Shown here piece by piece: positions 1 through 32,543 of a stretch of 64,000 bases of DNA (position 1 is its first letter; each line of letters begins with the position of its first letter). The translations under genes and the position numbers were made by a program. The notes under the pieces were generated by a model. The model saw only the letters and a program-made list of their open reading frames with translations, ran no database searches and had not been told where the DNA came from. The DNA lies in the IMG/VR virus record IMGVR_UViG_3300016744_000005, positions 1 to 64,000 of that record. One strand, written 5' to 3'. This DNA comes from a virus. Taxonomy: Duplodnaviria; Caudoviricetes.

Positions 1-343
1 TTTTTACACTGGGATCCCCATGGTATGTAAACTCCGTGTGCCGATCCAGATCGACCCAAACGATCCTGGACCCAGCCGCTGGGTAAAACCCCCACCCCGA
101 CGGTCGGTCAACCGAACCGGCGGTCTTGATCCCCGAATTCGAAAACACGTAATTTTTTACACGGCAGGGCCATGGTATGTAAATTACCCAGTCCGATCGA
201 TCCGACCTCCCGGTCAGCGATCCCGACGACCCAACCGGAAAATCCAAACGTGTAAATTTTTACACTGGGATCCCCATGGTATGTAAACTCCGTGTGCCGA
301 TCCAGATCGACCCAAACGATCCTGGACCCAGCCGCTGGGTAAA
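1..343. repeat. 87-bp perfect direct repeat (1-87 = 257-343) plus a degenerate core copy at ~153-183
   Basis: 1-87 and 257-343 are identical. Core TTTTTACAC..CCATGGTATGTAAA also occurs at 154-183, and CCATGGTATGT recurs at 1191-1201. The array may continue left of the window. Confidence 0.95.
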
Positions 344-1815
344 CACCTGGCCCAGAGCCAGGAGCTCGACTCGGATCACTCCGGGGCTGTGCAGGACCCC
401 TGAGGTCCAGCCGAGGGCAGCCGGTCCCCAGGGACTGGATCTAGACCCCAGGGCTACGGCCCTGGCGGTTACCCAACCGACCGAGAAAACCACGATTCGA
501 ATCCCAATCCGCCGAAATCACCACGATTTCGAGTAGATTATTTTCGACAAACCCAGTAAATCCAAGGGTCCGTGATTTTTTCCCGGAAAGTTTGTGAATA
601 CTATGCACCGAAATTTGCGTTGAAAAATTCAAACTCGGTACACCGAACTCCGACGACCTGGCTCAGCCAGACCGCCGAGTACACCCAGCCCGGTAACCCG
701 TTGCCCCACGGCACTGGTCGTCCTGGTTGCGGTGACGCTGGTTGATCGGCCCTAGTCCGTGACAGCACCTGGTGACAGCCCTAGGGCTGCCGCTGACATC
801 GCCCAGCAGAGCTGGGATACTCCACCAGGCTTGACCTGGCACTCGATCCCGCCGGTAGCCCCGGCTAGTGATCACCAGTGGTTTCGGCCACAGCGTACTG
901 GCTCCGGCCAGTAGCGCTACACAGTTCTGGCTGGCCGAAAGGTCCAGTTGGATATTACACCGCCTAGCGGCTGGTCTTCGGACTGGCGGCACTAGGGGTG
1001 GCTATACGTCGTCGCTGTAATCGACGACGTGATCTGACGAGTTTAACTCGTTACAACCGCTAGGCTCCTGGCACTACCGGTTGGTCCACAGCAGAAACAC
1101 CAGAGCGCCTCCGTGCTTGGTTAGCGAATTGGATGATCATCGAAGTCTAGGCGCGTCGGTCTCCGACGCAGTATTCACCGGAATTGAATCCCATGGTATG
1201 TGACCAGTGCACACTCGCTGATTCACCGTACACAACCTCCCGTGTTGTTACGTACTTACCCACCGCTCAGCACACTGCAGCCGCTGTGCTGCTGAGCACT
1301 CCAGCAGCAGGTTTACTCCTTCACCTCGTCGTTGGTAAACCAGTGGGTAGCCCATGGCTCAATTCTGTGGAATCTCTCAAAGTCAGTCCCTTTGAGAGCG
1401 GTATACTGGATGCGGATACAGTATATCAACCTGGCCAGTTGTCCGTGGAGTCATTAGACTCTGTAGATCGCCGTGAACGATCTTTCGGACCTGCTAAATC
1501 CATCACTGTCGGGTAGACAGTGATCTCGATGGGACTATCGAGATGATGACTAACGTCATCAAACGAACCACCCCTGATGGGTTATCCACGCCGGTGTGTA
1601 GGCCGGTGACATCAGAGCTTCGATGACTGTCAGACATTGCCTCCTCTCAACGTCAGATAGAATCTTCGTATTACGATCGAGGTTTGGTTCGCTGCAGTGC
1701 CCGGTGGCAACACCGGGCCATTCTCCTGCTTTGGATTTTGCAGTAAGTCTAATCATAGTTAGACTGTTCATAGGGTAACTGGCTAGGTAGGCTTCGGCCT
1801 ACCTAGCTCTTTTTT
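340..1815 (+). ncRNA. candidate large structured non-coding RNA(s), family unknown
   Basis: No credible ORF. GC-rich relative to the genes. Many stems with UNCG/GNRA loops and G-U pairs that work on the + strand (448-465, 878-891, 929-949, 970-987, 1699-1718). Ends at a + strand terminator. Boundaries approximate. Confidence 0.55.
1782..1815 (+). terminator. intrinsic terminator
   Basis: GCTAGGTAGGC-TTCG-GCCTACCTAGC followed by TCTTTTTT. Confidence 0.85.
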
Positions 1816-1845
1816 GTGTCTGTACTCGATAGGACATTTTAAGAC

Positions 1846-1884: not shown

Positions 1885-2187
1885 TCAGAAAGGCCATTTA
1901 AAGCCAATCAGAAGTACGCTGACGCAATTGGCAGCTATAACCAAGGCATACCCACCAGTAAAGCCTTTAATTTTAATAGGTGGTAGTACAGGAGCTGCAA
2001 AGCATCGGCAGACGGTAGCATAGACTATGGTGAGTAGTGGACTAAATGCCAGTGCTGCTAACCAGACCGCTTGCAATCTACCGAGTGCAGAGTAGCGATG
2101 CTGGTGATTTTCAGATAAGAGTATTAGTCCAATAATCCCTACTGTGATCTGTTTCCACAGTAGTAGCTGTAGTAATGCGGTAGTCAT
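1885..2187 (-). CDS. small multi-pass membrane protein
   Basis: 100 aa with about three hydrophobic segments; start overlaps the upstream stop. Confidence 0.7.
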   Translation of the reverse strand: MTTALLQLLLWKQITVGIIGLILLSENHQHRYSALGRLQAVWLAALAFSPLLTIVYATVCRCFAAPVLPPIKIKGFTGGYALVIAANCVSVLLIGFKWPF

Positions 2188-2585
2188 TAAGGTGTCTCCA
2201 GTGTATAAAGAAACTCACCAGAATCACCATCCGGTTGAATCGTAATAGGTCGTTCACCCACGAACCAATGACCATTTTGTTCGTAGAGTAAGCCGATATC
2301 CAGGATCAATAAACCCTGTGGATGCAGAGTATCTTTTAACGCAGATTTGATCATCCGTCGATTGAGCGTTTCAAACTCATAATCTGAGGTAATCCGCATC
2401 AGTTTGCGAATATGCATCCCGTCACGTTTAGTATGCACACAAGCAACGATATCACCGAGAGTTACATCGTTATGTAATCCGATCAACTCCTGATGCCATG
2501 CACAGTCGGTGATCGAGACACCACCAGTGTCTAATTGGGTGAGGATCCCCATGGAGATCCGGGTAATAGGTAAATCCATAGCCAT
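2187..2585 (-). CDS. hypothetical protein (start revised to MAMDL...)
   Basis: AAGGAG SD upstream of the ATG at 2585; operonic position. Confidence 0.7.
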   Translation of the reverse strand: MAMDLPITRISMGILTQLDTGGVSITDCAWHQELIGLHNDVTLGDIVACVHTKRDGMHIRKLMRITSDYEFETLNRRMIKSALKDTLHPQGLLILDIGLLYEQNGHWFVGERPITIQPDGDSGEFLYTLETP

Positions 2586-2595
2586 ATCCGGCTCC

Positions 2596-3357
2596 TTAGT
2601 TGGCAATTGATATGATAGCAGGTGAGCTAAAGTTGTTGATACGATCACCTGGTGTAAAGACGGTATATTGAATCGTGGCTTGTTTACCAGCTAATTGATG
2701 GCGATAACGGTAGTAATCACGTTTCAACCAGCTGGGTGCTGCAGTGATCTTGATGTGGTGTTTACGACCTTCGTGCTCCACTTCACAGATAAACGCTTTG
2801 ATAGAGTTAGTGGTGGTAGTTAATACTGATAGAATCGTGGCAGTGACGTAACGATTCGGTAGTAAGTGATATCGACGCATACCCATTACGGCTAACTCAG
2901 CATCGATATACAGTCCATCAAACTCCAGTGATTTAGAACATAAATCAATCGTGGATTTTAATTCACTATGTTGTAAAGTAAATGGTTCGAGTTTAGTTAC
3001 ACGTATCCGGCCAGGTGTACCTGGATCGCCGAAAGTATAAACCCGTATCACATCTAACCACTCAGTAGGTTCTTCTTTACCCAGGTTGTAAGTTAACCAA
3101 CGAGAGACTGCACGAGTGATAGTCGGATGATGTATAATTACATCACCAGTTACACCTTGCTTAACTAACTCAGCTGATAATGCATCGTTAATCAATCGTA
3201 CATCGCCATTGAATAGCTGTGTGCAATCGCCGTCTTGAACTACTTGACACAGTGCACCGGTCGGTTTCCGCCATGCAGTAACTGCATGGGTAGACTCCAC
3301 TGAAAACATGCCGTTGTTGTAATGGGTGTAAAAATCACCTTTAGATAGAATTTCCAT
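2596..3357 (-). CDS. ATP-dependent DNA ligase-like protein, apparently degenerate
   Basis: WRKPTG resembles motif I (KxDG), FDGLYI resembles motif IV, and the C-terminal GKQATIQYTVFT..NFSSP resembles the ligase OB fold/motif VI. Confidence 0.4.
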   Translation of the reverse strand: MEILSKGDFYTHYNNGMFSVESTHAVTAWRKPTGALCQVVQDGDCTQLFNGDVRLINDALSAELVKQGVTGDVIIHHPTITRAVSRWLTYNLGKEEPTEWLDVIRVYTFGDPGTPGRIRVTKLEPFTLQHSELKSTIDLCSKSLEFDGLYIDAELAVMGMRRYHLLPNRYVTATILSVLTTTTNSIKAFICEVEHEGRKHHIKITAAPSWLKRDYYRYRHQLAGKQATIQYTVFTPGDRINNFSSPAIISIAN

Positions 3358-3447: not shown

Positions 3448-4755
3448 ATGCCTTTTCAATCACTTTTACATGTTACCACCGATAGGCTATTTAAAACATC
3501 GTCTATAGTGGCCCTAGAATCGTTTGTAAGCAATTCTAACGACTTTCCTATACTCACGTCAGCCTTTACGGCTGCTGCTGGTAATATCGAGCCTACGCAG
3601 CGTTTAGCGCGTGCCATCAGTAGTTTCTTAGTAAGACTCCAAACTTGTAATGATGACCACATCAACTTCTTTGGTGGTAATCTGTTAGGTACCGACCGTA
3701 TCAGATTCTTAGATACCGATCGGGCTAAATGGTTTGATGATATCTTACAGATCGATGAAGACTATTTACGAGAGTGTGTACATGCAGTACCTTATATCGA
3801 TAAAGACTGGAAAGTTGGTGCTGATGTATTTAACTTATCCTGTGTCTGGGTAGTACATCAGTTCTATAAATCACCACATGCGAAAGATCCGGTGATCTAT
3901 CAGGCGATGATTGATACGCTAGTAATCCTACAGTTCCGGTTTATTAGTTCGATCTACTCTCAGTACTTTCCACGCCTAGTAGATAAAGCTGCCGCAGAAG
4001 CCACCTACGCGGCCTTTACACTGAAGTTCAATATCAAGCGTATGGGTTCCTGGGGAGAGATCCTCCGTGATCGTGCAGAGTCATTCATTAACTATGAATC
4101 ACCACACGTACATGCACTCAAGACTTTCCAACCAGATGACAAAGTCGTCTATATCGTAACCGATATGCAAACCCGTACTCGTAAAACGATCAAAGATCAG
4201 TACAACGTCTTAGATAAAGTCCGATCAGGTAATCTACGTATACAGACTACTCAATCGACTTTAACGATAGATGGCGATAAAATCATTAAAGATCATGTCA
4301 ATGTCTTTAATAATGCCAAACAGTATTTGTTTGATGTATCGGGTAATGAAGCGAGTTTCATTAAACGTCCATTGGTGGATGTGATACTGAACCTGATGTC
4401 CACTACTTCAGAGCAAGCATTTTTAGATATCTTAAAGATGATGTGTAATGAACCAGTAGGTACACACAGAGATGAAGTCGAATGGATGCTCGAGCATACA
4501 CTGATCCATGCATTCGATTACATCGCCCGTAATCGTATCCGTTTTAATGACGTAGGGATTATCCTGGTGAAACTTCGAGCCATGTATATGTCGTCGAAGT
4601 CGACTGATCCGATCTTGTTAGAACTACGGGAACGTATTGAACGTTACGCTAAAGCGAATTCTCATTTGAAATCGCCAGCAGCATTAGCTTCAGTACGCAC
4701 TGCGATTATGTTGTACTGTTTACTACGTGCCATCTCGTCTAATCAATACAGATAA
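3448..4755 (+). CDS. conserved-looking jumbo phage protein, function unknown
   Basis: 435 aa ORF, GAGG SD, followed by a hairpin. Confidence 0.8.
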   Translation: MPFQSLLHVTTDRLFKTSSIVALESFVSNSNDFPILTSAFTAAAGNIEPTQRLARAISSFLVRLQTCNDDHINFFGGNLLGTDRIRFLDTDRAKWFDDILQIDEDYLRECVHAVPYIDKDWKVGADVFNLSCVWVVHQFYKSPHAKDPVIYQAMIDTLVILQFRFISSIYSQYFPRLVDKAAAEATYAAFTLKFNIKRMGSWGEILRDRAESFINYESPHVHALKTFQPDDKVVYIVTDMQTRTRKTIKDQYNVLDKVRSGNLRIQTTQSTLTIDGDKIIKDHVNVFNNAKQYLFDVSGNEASFIKRPLVDVILNLMSTTSEQAFLDILKMMCNEPVGTHRDEVEWMLEHTLIHAFDYIARNRIRFNDVGIILVKLRAMYMSSKSTDPILLELRERIERYAKANSHLKSPAALASVRTAIMLYCLLRAISSNQYR

Positions 4756-6141: not shown

Positions 6142-6262
6142 GATAGTACTCCTTATGCAAACATTGAATGATGTTCTGCTAATGTATCGACGTAATGAGT
6201 GTGTAAATGCTCAATATACATTTGACATACGTTGCTCCATTAGCTTGCGTTGGTTGTGATAA

Positions 6263-6448
6263 CTATTTAATTAATTTAGATGCCAGATTGAACAACGTCC
6301 CGACAGTTTCACCATCAGTATGACCTTTACCATAACCTACTTTATAACCAATGTATACTGCAGCAGATACTACGGCTACACCAGTCACGAATCCTGCAGC
6401 TACACTAAGTTTATAACCTAAAGTAGTTTTATTATTTTTATTACTCAT
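6263..6448 (-). CDS. small single-TM protein
   Basis: 61 aa, basic N-terminus, TM, then VYIGYKVGY. Confidence 0.75.
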   Translation of the reverse strand: MSNKNNKTTLGYKLSVAAGFVTGVAVVSAAVYIGYKVGYGKGHTDGETVGTLFNLASKLIK

Positions 6449-6497
6449 GATAGATCCTTAGTAGTAGGTAGTCTTTCGACTACCTACTGACTAGTAA

Positions 6498-6701
6498 TTA
6501 TTTACGGAAGAAGTTACCTCCAGCTTCAATGCCATCACCGATAGTGGTCACTACAGTTTCAGCACCATCTGCGATGGTTTCTGCTTCGTCAGGAGTAATG
6601 ACTTCCTGATCTTTACCTAAACGGTAAACACAGTAAACTGCGGTGGCGGTTAATGCTACTGCTGCGGTAACTTTCAATGCGAATTTAGTTTTGTTTTTCA
6701 T
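6498..6701 (-). CDS. small single-TM protein
   Basis: 67 aa, basic N-terminus, TM, then VYCVYRLG; first gene after an early promoter. Confidence 0.75.
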   Translation of the reverse strand: MKNKTKFALKVTAAVALTATAVYCVYRLGKDQEVITPDEAETIADGAETVVTTIGDGIEAGGNFFRK

Positions 6702-6768
6702 GATATATTTCCTTAATTAATAGTAGATTTGAAGTAGACTAAGCAGGTTATCCTACTTAACTTCACTA

Positions 6769-6781
6769 GGTAATATATATC
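6769..6781 (-). promoter_or_regulatory. putative phiKZ-type early promoter
   Basis: GATATATATTACC on - strand contains an exact TATATTAC. Confidence 0.7.
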
Positions 6782-6838
6782 TGAGTATTTTTTTATTCGA
6801 GGTTAGAATAAACCTAAGGTTTGATTAAACAGCATAAG

Positions 6839-6874
6839 GCGTAGTACCTACTGGACATCCAGTAGGTACTACGC
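6839..6874 (-). terminator. hairpin ending the terminase operon
   Basis: 17-bp inverted repeat GCGTAGTACCTACTGGA/TCCAGTAGGTACTACGC. Confidence 0.75.
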
Positions 6875-6879
6875 ATATT

Positions 6880-7080
6880 TCACGATATTTGGGCTAGGTG
6901 TACTACAAGGCTATTAGTAATGCCAACCAAACTAGCGGCACTAGCCATTACACCACCGCGGTAATATGTTAATGGTATTGCTGTAACCCAACCAGAGGCT
7001 TTACTCATAGCGTAGCAAATGAGATGGCGACACATAACCAACATGATTAGATTCACCAACACAATAAAGGCAATTAACAT
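6880..7080 (-). CDS. small hydrophobic protein
   Basis: 66 aa; start overlaps the terminase stop. Confidence 0.6.
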   Translation of the reverse strand: MLIAFIVLVNLIMLVMCRHLICYAMSKASGWVTAIPLTYYRGGVMASAASLVGITNSLVVHLAQIS

Positions 7081-27279: not shown

Positions 27280-28812
27280 CACTCCCATCATAGTGGACCA
27301 TATATTCATCTCAGCTTTGCTGAGAGCCTACCGTTTCGGGTTTCCCCTACTCTACTCACTTTAACCGCGTTTACACGCAGCCAACTGGCTATTACACTAC
27401 AGTTGTCATTAATCTCCGAAGAGACGTAGCTTTCGATGGCCTCTGAACACATCCCATGGCTTATGCTTTAGGGACTTCGTTGCGCCGATTGTGTCAGCAC
27501 TATACGTTTTTACCATGCCTATCACTTCCATTACTGGGATAGGTATTACACTGCATTTCTACGTGTAAGTGGTAGTATAGTGGTTATAGACAGGTTCCCG
27601 CAGTTAGGTAGGTTTCGCTAGAGTCAACTCGCGCCGACTCAGTGGACCGATTGTAAATGATTAAGCAGAAATAATATTTAGATTAATAAGTTCTTTCTTT
27701 AAATTATCGAATAATTTATTACCGGACAAATCTTTATAGTTAAATACGAGTAAATGCATGTTGTTTTCCACAGCAAATTTAACTTTAACAACATCGTTTC
27801 GTACTGTACATAAGTGATTGTCCCATCCACCAAATCTATCTACTGGCTCATAATGTTGTATACCGTGAAACTCAATTAATACATTATGTTTTGGCAAATA
27901 GAAGTCAAACCTATATCTACTACCTTTAAATGAATATTCTTTTTTAAAAGTAATACCGAATTGATCTAAGTAATGTGCGATCATTCGTTCACCGTAGCTT
28001 TCACGACATCTGGGGCAACCAGACTTATTGGCTATGTGTGAGTTAGGTCTAACGTAAAACTCCCCATGATATTTACAGACTACAGTTAGTTTAGTTTTAC
28101 TATTAACATAAACCGCCCGACTGTAATCGTAAGTATTACCATGGATTTTATTGGCAGTAGTTATAAATTCTTCTAAAGTATTCTTAGTACTTAATATACC
28201 ACATTTTTTACAATTGTGCCCTGCAAGATGTGCACGCGCTGGCTGTTTAAAGTAGCCGTGTGTAGGACATTTTATTTCTACAGTGGCTTGTATGGTATCA
28301 AGTACAACTTTATCATAACCGTATTTATTCCCATGTACTTGTCGTGCTTTATCAATGAACTCATCAGTTGATAGTCGTCTATCAAATGGGGCGCATTTAG
28401 GACACTTACTACCATTATGGTAATGGGTAATGGGTTTAGTATCCCAATCACCATGTATGGGACATGTAATTGTGACAGGTGTAGTAGTGTTAACAAATTT
28501 AACTTTATCATAATTGTACTTGAATCCATGCACATCTATAGATTTTTCAATAAAGTCTTCTTGTGTTAAATTACCACAACATTTAGTACAGCCGCGGCGC
28601 CCACTTATCAAATTACATGGCCATGCAGTATAAATAGTATTGTGGATACTACACTTAACGTTAACACGTGTACGGTTATTTCGATAATCTAAATCTGGAA
28701 ACGAGATACTGTCTCCATAAATTTTCTTTATTTGCGATAAGAACTTTTTAACCCTAAGCTTTCTGTTTCTCATATACGTATACCATGTAATAAAATACAT
28801 AGTATAGTGTTA
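27280..28812 (-). mobile_element. group I intron (1533 nt) in the vRNAP beta gene
   Basis: 5' exon ends in U (GTGGAT), intron ends in G. Core elements P AACUGCGGGAA, R GUUCAGAGGCCAU, S AAUAUAUGGUC. IGS GUCCACU pairs with AGUGGAU. Splicing gives in-frame RKQRVD|LPIRK. Confidence 0.88.
27661..28800 (-). CDS. intron-encoded homing endonuclease: Cys/His zinc-binding repeats + C-terminal Vsr-like PD-(D/E)XK (EDxHD-type) nuclease
   Basis: Four CxxHG...CxxC-type repeats; SYGE...RFDFYLP...IEFHGIQH; AT-rich relative to the exons. Confidence 0.85.
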   Translation of the reverse strand: MYFITWYTYMRNRKLRVKKFLSQIKKIYGDSISFPDLDYRNNRTRVNVKCSIHNTIYTAWPCNLISGRRGCTKCCGNLTQEDFIEKSIDVHGFKYNYDKVKFVNTTTPVTITCPIHGDWDTKPITHYHNGSKCPKCAPFDRRLSTDEFIDKARQVHGNKYGYDKVVLDTIQATVEIKCPTHGYFKQPARAHLAGHNCKKCGILSTKNTLEEFITTANKIHGNTYDYSRAVYVNSKTKLTVVCKYHGEFYVRPNSHIANKSGCPRCRESYGERMIAHYLDQFGITFKKEYSFKGSRYRFDFYLPKHNVLIEFHGIQHYEPVDRFGGWDNHLCTVRNDVVKVKFAVENNMHLLVFNYKDLSGNKLFDNLKKELINLNIISA

Positions 28813-30498
28813 ATCCACTCGTTGCTTACGCATTGTATAATTGATGTCATTGGCAGTCCAGTAGCCTTTGCTATCAATCATCGGTGTGGTGAATCGTAGT
28901 GTCGCAGACTCACCATTTACCGGTGTAACACGTACTGTGTGCATGTATGATTTATTAGCTGCATCCACATACGGTTCTACTTGATAGTCGGTAACGATGA
29001 TACCCGCTTTCTGGATACCCATTACTGCACCAATGATGTCTTTAGGCATCACTCGTTCGACATACTGTTTATTGAAATCAGCGGTAGTGGACTTCACCAT
29101 ATTTTTATCTAATATAGTTACATCATCTAACAGTATTTTAGGTTCTATCACCAATTCATGCGGTTGTACATCCAGCATATCCACGAGTTTACCAGGACCG
29201 AATGGATTGTCCAACTCCTGATATTTAGTAGACAATGCTGTAATACGCTTAAACTCTTTCGTGGTCAACATACCTGCTTCGATAAAACGATCACACGCTT
29301 TTATTACCGCTTTATCTAAAGTCACTGGTTGATCGATGTCGATCTCAGGTAGTTCGACTGGTTTCGCTACCACTACCTCGAAGTTCTCATCTTCGACGAT
29401 CGGTTCTGCATCAAACTGTTCGATCTCAGCTTGGATTGCTTCTTCATCTGAGTCATCAGTATCAGCACGCAGGGCAGCAGCATCTGCGATTTCGATTTTA
29501 GCTGTGCCTAATACATCATTAACTAAGCTATTGATATCATCGGCATCACGTTGTGCTGTGATACCATCGATATCCACCTGAGTAGGTTCGTCATCTACCG
29601 GTGTGCTAACAGGATTAGCGCTGATCGTGGTTTGAGTGGTTACCGCAGCAGTGGTGGCTAGTATAGTTGTGGTTTTATACAGACGTAATTGCATCTGTTC
29701 TGGTTTCACCAGACCTTTACCTTCAGCGTTTTTGCGCCAGTAATTTAACTCACCGAGATTCAAGTTGATAAAACGATCTTTGTACACTAACACAAAGTTA
29801 ATACGTTTTAACTGCTCTTCACTAAAACGCGCTAACATAGACTGATCTGAATGTGGTCCTAACCAAGTCCACAGATCCAGATACATCATGATGTTAGAGT
29901 CATGAAACTCTGTTAACGCGATGTTGTCCCGACGGGTTTCTGCCCGACGGAATTTAACTACTGCTGGGATGATATCCGGTACGTTTAATACGATAAAGTT
30001 TTGACGCTCGTATTTAGCAGTATCTACTAACATCCGTGACATCACGGTGTTGTAAGTATTGTACCAACGATCATACCAACTCATTAAAGTCGTTTGGTAA
30101 CGGTATTTACGTGCCAGTAACGCATAGTTTTCTACCAGTAAGGTACGTGGGTCTTTCTGTACCAAAGCATCTTCCCGTAGTCTACGCAGTTTCTTATTGA
30201 TACGGTGATACTGTACTACATCACGCTCTAACGGCGCAGTTAAAGGAATAGGACGACCGATAGTGCCTTCTGCATACTGGACTACGTGATTTACCAGTAC
30301 GAGCTTCTCGGCTTTGTCAATCATCGGTAAGGTCTGTGATGGACCTACTTCAGTAACGTCAGATGGAATATAATGAAAGATACTCCCACGTGGGAACTCC
30401 ATCAGTGCCACAGAGGCAGTACGTGGAGCACCGAATTGTTGCAGGCGAATCACTGTAAACATTCGGTTAAAGTTTTTAAGTAACATTGACATAGCCAT
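28813..30498 (-). CDS. virion RNAP beta subunit (gp178-like), exon 1
   Basis: 562 codons ending YTMRKQRVD; spliced product ~1413 aa. Confidence 0.85.
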
Positions 30499-30696: not shown

Positions 30697-32543
30697 CGGG
30701 TGTTCAGCAAAGACGCAACTCTTCACCAGTTCTCTCCTCTCGTACTCACTACGAGCAGGGAACTTCCCGTCCATTACAGACGGATACCAGACTATTTCTT
30801 CACCCTCCTAGAGGGGCCTTCCACTTCGAACAGTCGTAAGCTTACTGCTCTACTCCCCGCAACGGGATAGTCGTTGAACATTCCGCACGTGTGTTAACAC
30901 CTGAGCGGTTTAGCTGCACTGATTAGCGAATTGTACTCATTTAAGAGCCGACCCTTAGCACCACTCTAACGTGGCTGATTATGTATTAGCATAGGTCATG
31001 ATCAACATTTCTTTCTACCTTTCGGTGACTGTCACGCCCAGTCTTTCGACTCACGTTGTAGTAGTTGAACCTTTACCGCCTTCCTGCAATTCAAAAGGTA
31101 ACCATCTCGGAATTACTCCCGGATAGGACTTCGTAGGAATATATAAAACCGGTTTAAATATAACCAAGGGTGTAATGTTTGTATGGTTTACCGCGACGTA
31201 GGCAATTATTTACCCACGCTTTATCGATACCTAACTCATTTGCAAATTCTTTAATGCTTACATAATCTGTTACTATACCAGTATTCCGATCGGTAACTTT
31301 GATGCGCCTACCCCGCGGTTCGTATTGTAACTCAAACTCACGTAGTTCTTCATCAGTCCATTCGATCCAATCTGTTAAATATACTTTAAACTGAAACTGC
31401 CAACCTTTATAAGGTATCTGGTCACCTGCATGTAATCTTTCAGCTATAATTTTGGTACACGCTTTCAAATAACGGCTCATCGGGTTATATCCAGCAGAGA
31501 TTATTATTTGTTTAGTATGAACGTTTCTAGCTAATACGGTACATATACGCGGATCTGTTGTAATAGGTGTTGGTTTTGGCCTAATTCTAATTTCAGGCCA
31601 CCCAGTTTCATCGTCAGCATATTTAAACTGGTACTTACCATCATAAATGTAGTAATCATTCTTAATACGATTAGTGATAGTCGTTTCAGTTACATTATGT
31701 GCATTACCACATTCAGTACAGCTATAATACTCTTTAACTTCTCCAGTTTCCACATCGCGTACTTTAACACGAATGTTGTCACCTCGAAGACCTGTTTTAA
31801 ATGCGTGAATAATATTCCCGCTGTAATCAGTCCATTCTAGGTTATCTGGGTAGTTATTGTGTTTATCGCCATCTAAATGGTTTACGAGTAAAGAATCTGC
31901 ATTAGCAGGATAACGTAAAAACGTTAGTGCTACTAAACGATGGTGTTGGAAATATCGTTTAGTCCCAGCATCTGTTGTTACCATGGCACGTAAATAGGTG
32001 TTACGTGGTATGTATATAAATGTATTGTTATTTACATCCATAATTTCTAAGGTTTGCTTATTTATAGCGTATTTAGAAAATCCTGGAATGTGATACCATT
32101 CCGAACCTTTGGCAATTGGTATACCTTCATTTGGGTATCGCCATACAAGATTACTAGGATGGACATTTTCACGATTACCATCTACATACATTAACTTAAC
32201 ACGTTGCCATTTACTAAAATCAAAATGTAGTGGCTTATATGCTAATGCGACCAATCGTGTAATTTGATAGAATCTACACGATGTGCCAATAGTGATTTTA
32301 ACAACTTTTCGGTTTCGTTTATCTACTACAGGTGATAGTTGTCTATTCTTCACACAGTCGTAAATTTCACCTTGCTGGTTTATAACATAACGTTTATTAG
32401 CTTGCGGTATAACCATACTTGGTTTATCTATGAAATCTTGTAACATGCCAGACCTCCACTATATTCCACATATAATAGAGACAAAAGCATCAAAATAACA
32501 CTGTAACCCTTGATATTACTGGATTTTATCTATTCACACATTT
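30697..32543 (-). mobile_element. group I intron (1847 nt) inside the DFDGD motif of vRNAP beta'
   Basis: Exon ends GCAGAT (U), intron ends CCCG. P AAUUGCAGGAA, Q AAUCAGUGCAGC, R GUUCAACGACUA, S AAGAAAUAGUC. Splicing gives LGAD|FDGDT. Confidence 0.92.
31154..32446 (-). CDS. intron-encoded HNH homing endonuclease with NUMOD-like modules
   Basis: HRLVALTF...VNHLDGDKHNNYPDNLEW; an earlier degenerate copy (YVDGNRENVHPSNLVW); C-terminal repeats; GGAGG SD. Confidence 0.9.
   Translation of the reverse strand: MLQDFIDKPSMVIPQANKRYVINQQGEIYDCVKNRQLSPVVDKRNRKVVKITIGTSCRFYQITRLVALAYKPLHFDFSKWQRVKLMYVDGNRENVHPSNLVWRYPNEGIPIAKGSEWYHIPGFSKYAINKQTLEIMDVNNNTFIYIPRNTYLRAMVTTDAGTKRYFQHHRLVALTFLRYPANADSLLVNHLDGDKHNNYPDNLEWTDYSGNIIHAFKTGLRGDNIRVKVRDVETGEVKEYYSCTECGNAHNVTETTITNRIKNDYYIYDGKYQFKYADDETGWPEIRIRPKPTPITTDPRICTVLARNVHTKQIIISAGYNPMSRYLKACTKIIAERLHAGDQIPYKGWQFQFKVYLTDWIEWTDEELREFELQYEPRGRRIKVTDRNTGIVTDYVSIKEFANELGIDKAWVNNCLRRGKPYKHYTLGYI

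Follow-up and report, generated by a model that had tools for sequence, protein, structure and literature searches.

A candidate gene for a very large structured non-coding RNA in a Chimalliviridae-like jumbo phage

A handful of large 'ornate' RNAs are known in bacteria and phages, and the study of each has led to new RNA structural biology; GOLLD and ROOL assemble into cages made of RNA only. RNAIII of Staphylococcus aureus is a long multi-hairpin RNA (514 nt) that encodes a peptide and carries C-rich, UCCC-type loops complementary to Shine-Dalgarno sequences. GOLLD (Rfam RF01998) is encoded by phages and prophages and has an 'ornate', covariation-backed multi-domain structure with a conserved 3′ part and a poorly conserved 5′ part, and it has been reported to bind ribosomes (PMC12286853). 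In phiKZ and 201phi2-1, the non-coding RNAs detected by Grad-seq and ONT-cappable-seq measure about 100-250 nt and derive from untranslated or intergenic regions. Here, an RNA locus is described at positions 1-1815 of a 64,000-nucleotide stretch of DNA (IMG/VR record IMGVR_UViG_3300016744_000005, positions 1 to 64,000; the window), which is the first 64 kb of a 116-kb contig. The flagged region is the start of the contig of a Chimalliviridae-like (phiKZ-like, nucleus-forming) jumbo phage, as judged from the neighbouring proteins, which bear out the jumbo-phage origin assumed when the locus was originally predicted.

The locus is best read as an independent gene, or nested gene set, whose product is a large, structured non-coding RNA that represents a new family, with a probability of about 0.82. 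It resembles GOLLD in being phage-encoded and very large, with a covariation-supported multi-domain fold that combines a conserved 3′ and a variable 5′ part, whereas GOLLD is about 800 nt long and often has tRNAs near it, and the present RNA measures about 1.25-1.5 kb, has no nearby tRNAs and belongs to a Chimalliviridae-like phage. With ROOL (RF03087) and OLE (RF01071) it shares the character of a large structured bacterial or phage RNA with long-range helices and (here predicted) loop-loop contacts, but it matches neither model, is about twice their length and occurs in another taxonomic setting. RNAIII provides a functional analogy without homology, as the present RNA likewise offers C-rich loops (UUACUCCUUC, CCUCCUCU and UCCC) for which pairing is predicted from sequence. 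The small RNAs of phiKZ and 201phi2-1 come from the same phage family, but none of them is a kilobase-scale structured RNA, and no large structured RNA was found reported in the literature for phiKZ-like/Chimalliviridae phages.

In agreement with the original prediction, which could not assign the locus to tmRNA, tRNA, RNase P or group I/II introns, Rfam 15 gave no match at the locus at gathering scores when the window was searched, and ARAGORN found no tRNA or tmRNA; the sole intron match lies at 30767-31144. When cmscan was applied to 1-2000 up to E = 10, terminator-like noise was returned only, and the best match was the terminator hairpin. Covariance models of GOLLD, ROOL, OLE, and HEARO also gave no match (window at gathering scores; 1-2000 with E up to 10). 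The locus defines a previously undescribed family of structured phage RNA of very large size (about 1.2-1.5 kb).

Conserved base pairing in a non-coding region

Homologues were reached through neighbouring proteins and their contigs, not through DNA search. No match was obtained by blastn (distant setting) of 1-2200 against 50,697 phage records, pattern scans of IMG/VR and JGI metagenomes revealed no further homologues (18 IMG/VR 16-mer matches were due to chance), and a related-locus search seeded with the neighbouring 435-aa protein alone found none. Six further loci were recovered from sewage and other metagenome assemblies (L038, L060, L010, L057, L004, and L039), L004 being counted once with its near-identical copies L005 and L006, so that seven sequences are available including the window. 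These six related metagenomic phages keep a gene-free region at the same position and are thus the syntenic relatives that the original prediction had proposed to collect. L038 is 87% identical to the window across the RNA. The contig of L060 covers the right part of the gap only, while the other contigs span 2.7-2.9 kb where complete. L060 (770-2458, - strand) is a mosaic: its 5′ and 3′ ends match the window at 93% and 88% identity, respectively, and its middle domain matches L010 at 86%, which indicates that recombination swapped RNA domains between lineages. A covariance model (R1) built on window 1365-1573 recovers all homologues at E of about 1e-60, and it has no match in the complete genomes of pVa-21, pVp-JHP1101, KTN4 (phiKZ type), CR5, pEa_SNUABM_4, and RaK2 or in the contig of the L013 phage, a 60%-identity relative. 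The RNA family looks confined to a narrow clade of uncultivated phiKZ-like jumbo phages.

It was originally stated that the region is GC-rich and lacks a credible open reading frame (ORF), and both statements hold. The GC content is 0.50-0.62, against about 0.40-0.45 in neighbouring genes; the longest mechanical ORF has 110 aa, and the five longest have no Pfam or PHROGs match. Mismatches between the window and L038 are distributed over the three codon positions as 77/56/57 and are accompanied by 16 indels, mostly not multiples of three, whereas the flanking-gene controls gave 16/7/103 (253-aa gene) and 28/10/126 (435-aa gene) with zero indels. The region evolves as non-coding sequence, and with no codon periodicity and with frame-breaking indels, the overlapping ORFs are not kept as coding sequence. 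Small proteins starting at the ATG within CCATGG were also considered and rejected, as conservation is limited to the first four codons and the frames are broken by indels.

Covariation among the aligned relatives, the check suggested together with the original prediction, is strong, with 44 of 137 pairs in the 3′ domain and 37 of 107 in the middle domain being compensatory. For the 3′ domain (window 1145-1821), the RNAalifold consensus was taken from a seven-sequence alignment (A5). Standard pairs fill 95.3% of the cells of its 137 consensus pairs, and the 44 pairs are changed on both sides; in slid controls, in which the 3′ partners were displaced by 1-3 columns, only 3-6 compensatory pairs and 31-39% paired cells were found, and 0/500 column shuffles matched the observed values. 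An earlier five-sequence analysis of the same domain gave the same picture. The best-supported helices are 1524-1531/1536-1543 (6/8 pairs compensatory), the long-range 1564-1570/1685-1691 (5/7), and 1174-1187/1359-1371 and 1151-1159/1163-1172, with five and four compensatory pairs, respectively. In the middle domain (558-1201), the lineages were not alignable by BLAST, and the alignment was anchored on collinear conserved islands; across the seven sequences, 93.8% of the cells of the consensus pairs are paired, and the 37 compensatory pairs compare with 2-10 in slid controls.

Because the consensus fold comes from the same alignment, a test free of this circularity was run, in which the minimum-energy fold of a single sequence, either the window or L004, was superimposed on the alignment. 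In the 3′ domain, 80% of the pairs of such a single-sequence fold are kept in the other six sequences (32-41% when slid), with 49-52 compensatory pairs versus 6-21. In the middle domain, 69-72% of the pairs are kept, and the compensatory pairs number 45-50 versus 11-20. The 5′ leader (283-557) is weakly conserved across lineages, with 32 consensus pairs in five homologues, five of them compensatory, and the well-conserved structure spans about 558-1815. Over this span, base pairing is conserved with many compensatory changes. A long-range pairing of 591-602 with 1170-1181, present in one alignment fold, was rejected, since it has a single compensatory pair and competes with the better-supported helix 1174-1187/1359-1371.

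With regard to the strand, the folding energy relative to dinucleotide shuffles is low for 1155-1815 (z = -10.0) and for 620-1160 (z = -3.6), but the opposite strand folds nearly as well, so folding energy alone cannot choose between the two. Among the cells of the consensus pairs, G-U exceeds A-C by 68:12 in the 3′ domain and by 121:13 in the middle domain, and the two are near level on the reverse strand. The RNAalifold energies of the + and - strands are -151.9 versus -132.7 and -101.5 versus -78.1. With G-U far above A-C, the RNA is read from the + strand; the pair asymmetry and the alignment-fold energies both pick this strand, as had been proposed.

Transcript ends, candidate promoters and parts of the locus

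The + strand intrinsic terminator noted originally is confirmed at 1781-1815. It comprises a 12-bp stem with a UUCG loop (stem-loop 1781-1808) and a U-tract, and it stacks on the 12-bp helix 1433-1444/1773-1784 that closes the second half of the 3′ domain. All homologues keep it; an additional pair is present as A-U in L004/L039 and as G-C in L057. As the closing helix abuts the terminator stem, the terminator belongs to the fold and fixes where the predicted RNA ends.

At the 5′ side, candidate tandem promoter units occupy 1-343 (+ strand), each consisting of an AT-rich palindromic element (e.g. GTGTAAATTTTTACAC, 250-265) followed by the invariant 11-nt sequence CCATGGTATGT. The latter occurs in four copies in the window (18, 170, 274, and 1191), all on the + strand, and the rest of the 116-kb contig has none; in the upstream units, the candidate starts are the G of TATG at 27, 179, and 283. 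An AT-rich palindromic element (e.g. GTGTAAAAAATTACAC) precedes the upstream CCATGGTATGT copies in every homologue, with its centre about 24 nt before the G of TATG, and in L010 it reads GAGTAAAAAATTACTC, both half-sites being altered together. In phiKZ, late promoters contain TATG with G as +1, and middle promoters contain AAanTTACc centred near -24, some of them with TATG too (PMC4666361). The upstream units of all homologues fit the phiKZ motif in sequence and spacing, but contig-wide enrichment is absent. Since the composite pattern is not enriched, its promoter class and timing in this phage can only be inferred; the same is true of the promoters themselves and of where the transcripts begin and end, and the phage's own RNA polymerase would act on the locus at middle or late times.

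The relatives carry one or two upstream promoter-like units per phage, and the present assembly carries three. The first 87 nt of the window are an exact repeat of 257-343, and near-identity extends over the units 1-100 and 257-356. In L037, a JGI contig assembled independently from the same phage, there are only two promoter units; the additional one at the contig start may have arisen from the repeat during assembly.

Two possible promoters lie inside the locus. The internal copy of CCATGGTATGT (1191-1201, + strand; G of TATG at 1200) is invariant in all seven homologues, has no AT-rich element, and sits inside helix 1174-1187/1359-1371. A third TATG, at 602-605, falls in the conserved block 524-640 and shows the same GTG-to-TATG spacing as the upstream units (candidate start 605). 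In the proposed scheme, transcription of the + strand would begin at TATG-type phage promoters specific to the locus, with candidate starts at 283, 605, and 1200, and would end at the terminator at 1815. Compensatory helices lie upstream of and across 1200, and at least one transcript must therefore start further upstream. The original wording, "one ~1.1-1.5 kb RNA or several RNAs", stands, as the three candidate starts share the terminator, and nested shorter RNAs are possible.

The conserved body (about 558-1815, about 1.25 kb) would comprise two folded domains, a middle one and a 3′ one that is better conserved, is closed by long-range helices and includes the terminator hairpin. All parts described below are on the + strand. 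The variable 5′ leader (283-557) contains local hairpins, including a UACG-capped stem at 448-465, and some compensatory hairpins are common to the window and L038. It is followed by an AT-rich block (524-640) that retains 85-88% identity even to the most distant homologues and has a near-invariant core of about 45 nt; this block is a conserved stretch of single-stranded RNA or else a promoter within the locus. A lineage-specific, hairpin-rich region (640-890) includes the conserved island CCGCUGACAUCGC (790-802) and then a hairpin whose stem differs between lineages. In the conserved middle domain (890-1172), the helices are 893-902/907-917, 926-932/947-953, 1035-1042/1046-1053 (7/8 pairs compensatory), 1054-1063/1074-1083, 1084-1087/1131-1134, 1099-1103/1117-1121, and 1151-1159/1163-1172. 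In the first half of the 3′ domain (1145-1413), helix 1174-1187/1359-1371 encloses hairpins, and those of this half are 1227-1252, 1265-1297, 1302-1335 (loop 1313-1322), and 1374-1398 (loop 1383-1389). The second half (1414-1784) contains hairpins 1503-1523, 1524-1543 (loop GGGACU), 1545-1560, 1589-1608, 1634-1653 (loop 1640-1647), and 1697-1719.

The structural elements quoted in the original prediction were all recovered. CCAGGGC-UACG-GCCCUGG (448-465), GUGGU-UUCG-GCCAC (878-891), and GCUGGUC-UUCG-GACUGGC (970-987) are present at those positions, as are a 9-bp stem (1006-1030), three abutting hairpins (1503-1560), and GCCCGGUG-GCAA-CACCGGGC (1699-1718). The long-range pairing CGAACCA/UGGUUCG forms helix 1564-1570/1685-1691 in the second half of the 3′ domain, and 5/7 of its pairs later proved to be compensatory. 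A GAAA-capped stem at 929-949 is also present, but it requires a bulge or internal loop.

Invariant loops and alternative explanations

Several loops on covarying stems are invariant, namely UUACUCCUUC (10 nt, 1313-1322), CCUCCUCU (1640-1647), UCAGUCC (1383-1389), and GGGACU (1531-1536), and GAUGCGGAUA (1404-1413) is likewise invariant. Complementary segments, AGUCCC (1385-1390) with GGGACU (1531-1536) and AAAUCCA with UGGAUUU, are candidate tertiary pairs, and the loops UCAGUCC and GGGACU may form a kissing contact. Both UUACUCCUUC and CCUCCUCU are similar to the anti-Shine-Dalgarno sequence, a further loop belongs to the UCCC type, and loop 1640-1647 contains CCUCC. As its ribosome-binding site, this phage normally uses AAGGAGT (26 copies, about 23 of them before start codons, and often followed by AA), and AAGGAGG has three copies. 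Loop 1313-1322 is the exact complement of AAGGAGUAA, i.e. the usual site AAGGAGU(AA), so the RNA could pair with the ribosome-binding sites of mRNAs through its loops, or it could engage the translation apparatus otherwise. None of seven Shine-Dalgarno-like purine words searched (AAGGAG, GGAGG, and relatives) occurs in the RNA itself. When the 116-kb contig was searched for sequences that could pair with the conserved block and the loops, only 11-12-mers at chance level were returned. For the mechanism, our leading but rather doubtful guess is a stable RNA acting in trans, whose invariant hairpin loops would serve a translation-linked role.

Several considerations weigh against the main interpretation or its functional extension. 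The RNA is known here from sequence alone, and the homologues comprise seven sequences only, from about five independent lineages, all of them metagenomic. The composite promoter pattern is not enriched across the 116-kb contig (7 found versus 4.4 expected). The RNA is undetected in phages whose neighbouring head protein is 56-60% identical, so it cannot serve a core function of the entire phage family. With regard to the anti-Shine-Dalgarno reading, the evidence consists of short motifs in invariant loops, which cannot covary, so chance or an internal tertiary partner may account for them.

Other explanations keep the RNA gene and differ in its product or role. The locus might produce several separate RNAs, i.e. 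one of about 0.6 kb (1200-1815) plus at least one upstream RNA, each with its own function. This is a genuine possibility, if not a likely one: CCATGGTATGT recurs at 1191, a TATG stands at 602-605 in the conserved block, and the mosaic L060 shows domains behaving as modules, but helix 1174-1187/1359-1371 (five compensatory pairs) and hairpin 1151-1172 (four) lie across or upstream of 1200, and no + strand terminator is found between 283 and 1781. The same gene could instead encode a self-assembling RNA-only particle or an RNA-protein scaffold like GOLLD/ROOL. The phage-encoded, very large RNA with a conserved 3′ and a variable 5′ part has GOLLD-like traits (PMC12286853), the invariant AGUCCC and GGGACU could pair within or between molecules, and the tandem candidate promoters suggest high abundance; there is, however, no sequence or structure match to the GOLLD, ROOL, and OLE models, and no tRNA genes are nearby although such RNAs often adjoin them. 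A particle of this kind is considered unlikely.

Another explanation is that the transcript acts in cis on a neighbouring DNA element (a replication origin or genome-level site), activated by transcription of the right arm or by the RNA serving as primer or R-loop. In the relatives, a conserved AT-rich palindrome is found about 0.4 kb to the left of the RNA gene, a similar one is present at the same position in pEa_SNUABM_4, a phage without the RNA, and several database records and contigs begin or end in this region. The promoters are nevertheless directed away from the palindrome, at its 5′ end the RNA is rich in C and not in G, a bias that is not conducive to R-loops, and the dense compensatory change over 1.2 kb reflects selection on a folded RNA that origin activation would not need, so that cis action appears decidedly unlikely; the cumulative GC skew of the complete pVa-21 genome has no extremum at the gap, which is uninformative either way. 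It is highly improbable that nothing new is present, i.e. that the locus is a diverged known family (group I/II intron, RNase P, tmRNA, GOLLD, ROOL, OLE, or HEARO) or a coding or DNA-level signal. Self-splicing RNAs do occur in this phage, as seen from the group I intron at 30767-31144, but the locus matches no Rfam family to E = 10 apart from terminator-like noise and contains no tRNA or tmRNA, a coding signature is lacking, and the excess of G-U over A-C argues for an RNA read from one strand. A gene, or nested genes, for a new structured RNA thus remains the preferred reading.

Genome setting and significance

The contig is rated by CheckV as about half a genome. The window begins at the contig end inside the gene-free region, so the RNA locus is cut on the left. 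The absence of genes over about 1.5 kb, as originally described, was upheld, but the true extent is larger: the complete gap in relatives, at the same position, is 2.7-2.9 kb without called genes, of which the window carries the right 1.9 kb alone. On the right, the locus is bordered by the convergent terminator (1852-1879, - strand) of a - strand gene cluster (1885-3357), and no RNA-related partner was found among the flanking genes by Pfam. The ORF at 3448-4755 (435 aa) encodes a protein of the head or virion that is present in 290 Chimalliviridae records; by this protein, the nearest isolates are the Vibrio phages pVa-21 and pVp-JHP1101, with 56% identity.

In the relatives, the left part of the gap contains a well-conserved array of small hairpins, an AT-rich perfect palindrome centred on TCCCnnnGGGA, and then CCGA-rich repeats. 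The palindrome is located at L010:4130-4230, L038:7140-7230 (- strand), and L044:930-1020, and it is shared with the distant Erwinia phage pEa_SNUABM_4, where it also lies in a gene-free region at the same position. It is perhaps a conserved DNA-level site, such as an origin, a packaging site, or a control region. In the Vibrio phages, this position is likewise occupied by a gap, of at least about 1.5 kb (L002:3575-5097 in pVa-21 and L003:2414-5094 in pVp-JHP1101). These gaps have no similarity to the RNA and contain purine-rich and pyrimidine-rich low-complexity tracts; that of pVp-JHP1101 includes an annotated 380-aa ORF.

Two further stretches of the contig have no ORF of at least 70 aa, namely G000:C1:113961-115246 (1.3 kb) and window 6142-7079 (0.9 kb), the second of which probably holds small genes. 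The group I intron mentioned above (Rfam RF00028, 52.4 bits; 30767-31144, - strand) lies between the ORFs 28810-30498 and 31154-32446. AT-rich words, e.g. TATATTA, are enriched 5′ of the genes of this phage, which is consistent with phiKZ-like early promoters.

The conserved body of the RNA is about half again the size of GOLLD (about 1.25 kb versus about 800 nt), and it occurs in a phage family otherwise known for small non-coding RNAs only. The covariation-rich model is suited at once to in vitro transcription, chemical probing, and cryo-EM, and the invariant loops are concrete mutational targets. The RNA locus also marks a conserved gene-free control region with an AT-rich palindrome in these phages. 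In its fullest form, the proposal is that this RNA exceeds in size every non-ribosomal structured RNA known from phages and is the first such RNA known from a nucleus-forming jumbo phage, that tandem promoters of the phage polymerase make it abundant, and that it either acts on translation (anti-Shine-Dalgarno-like loops bound to ribosome-binding sites or 30S subunits) or forms a higher-order RNA particle. This combination is possible, though we hold it to be more doubtful than not; if true, either activity would be a new level at which Chimalliviridae take over the host or control timing.

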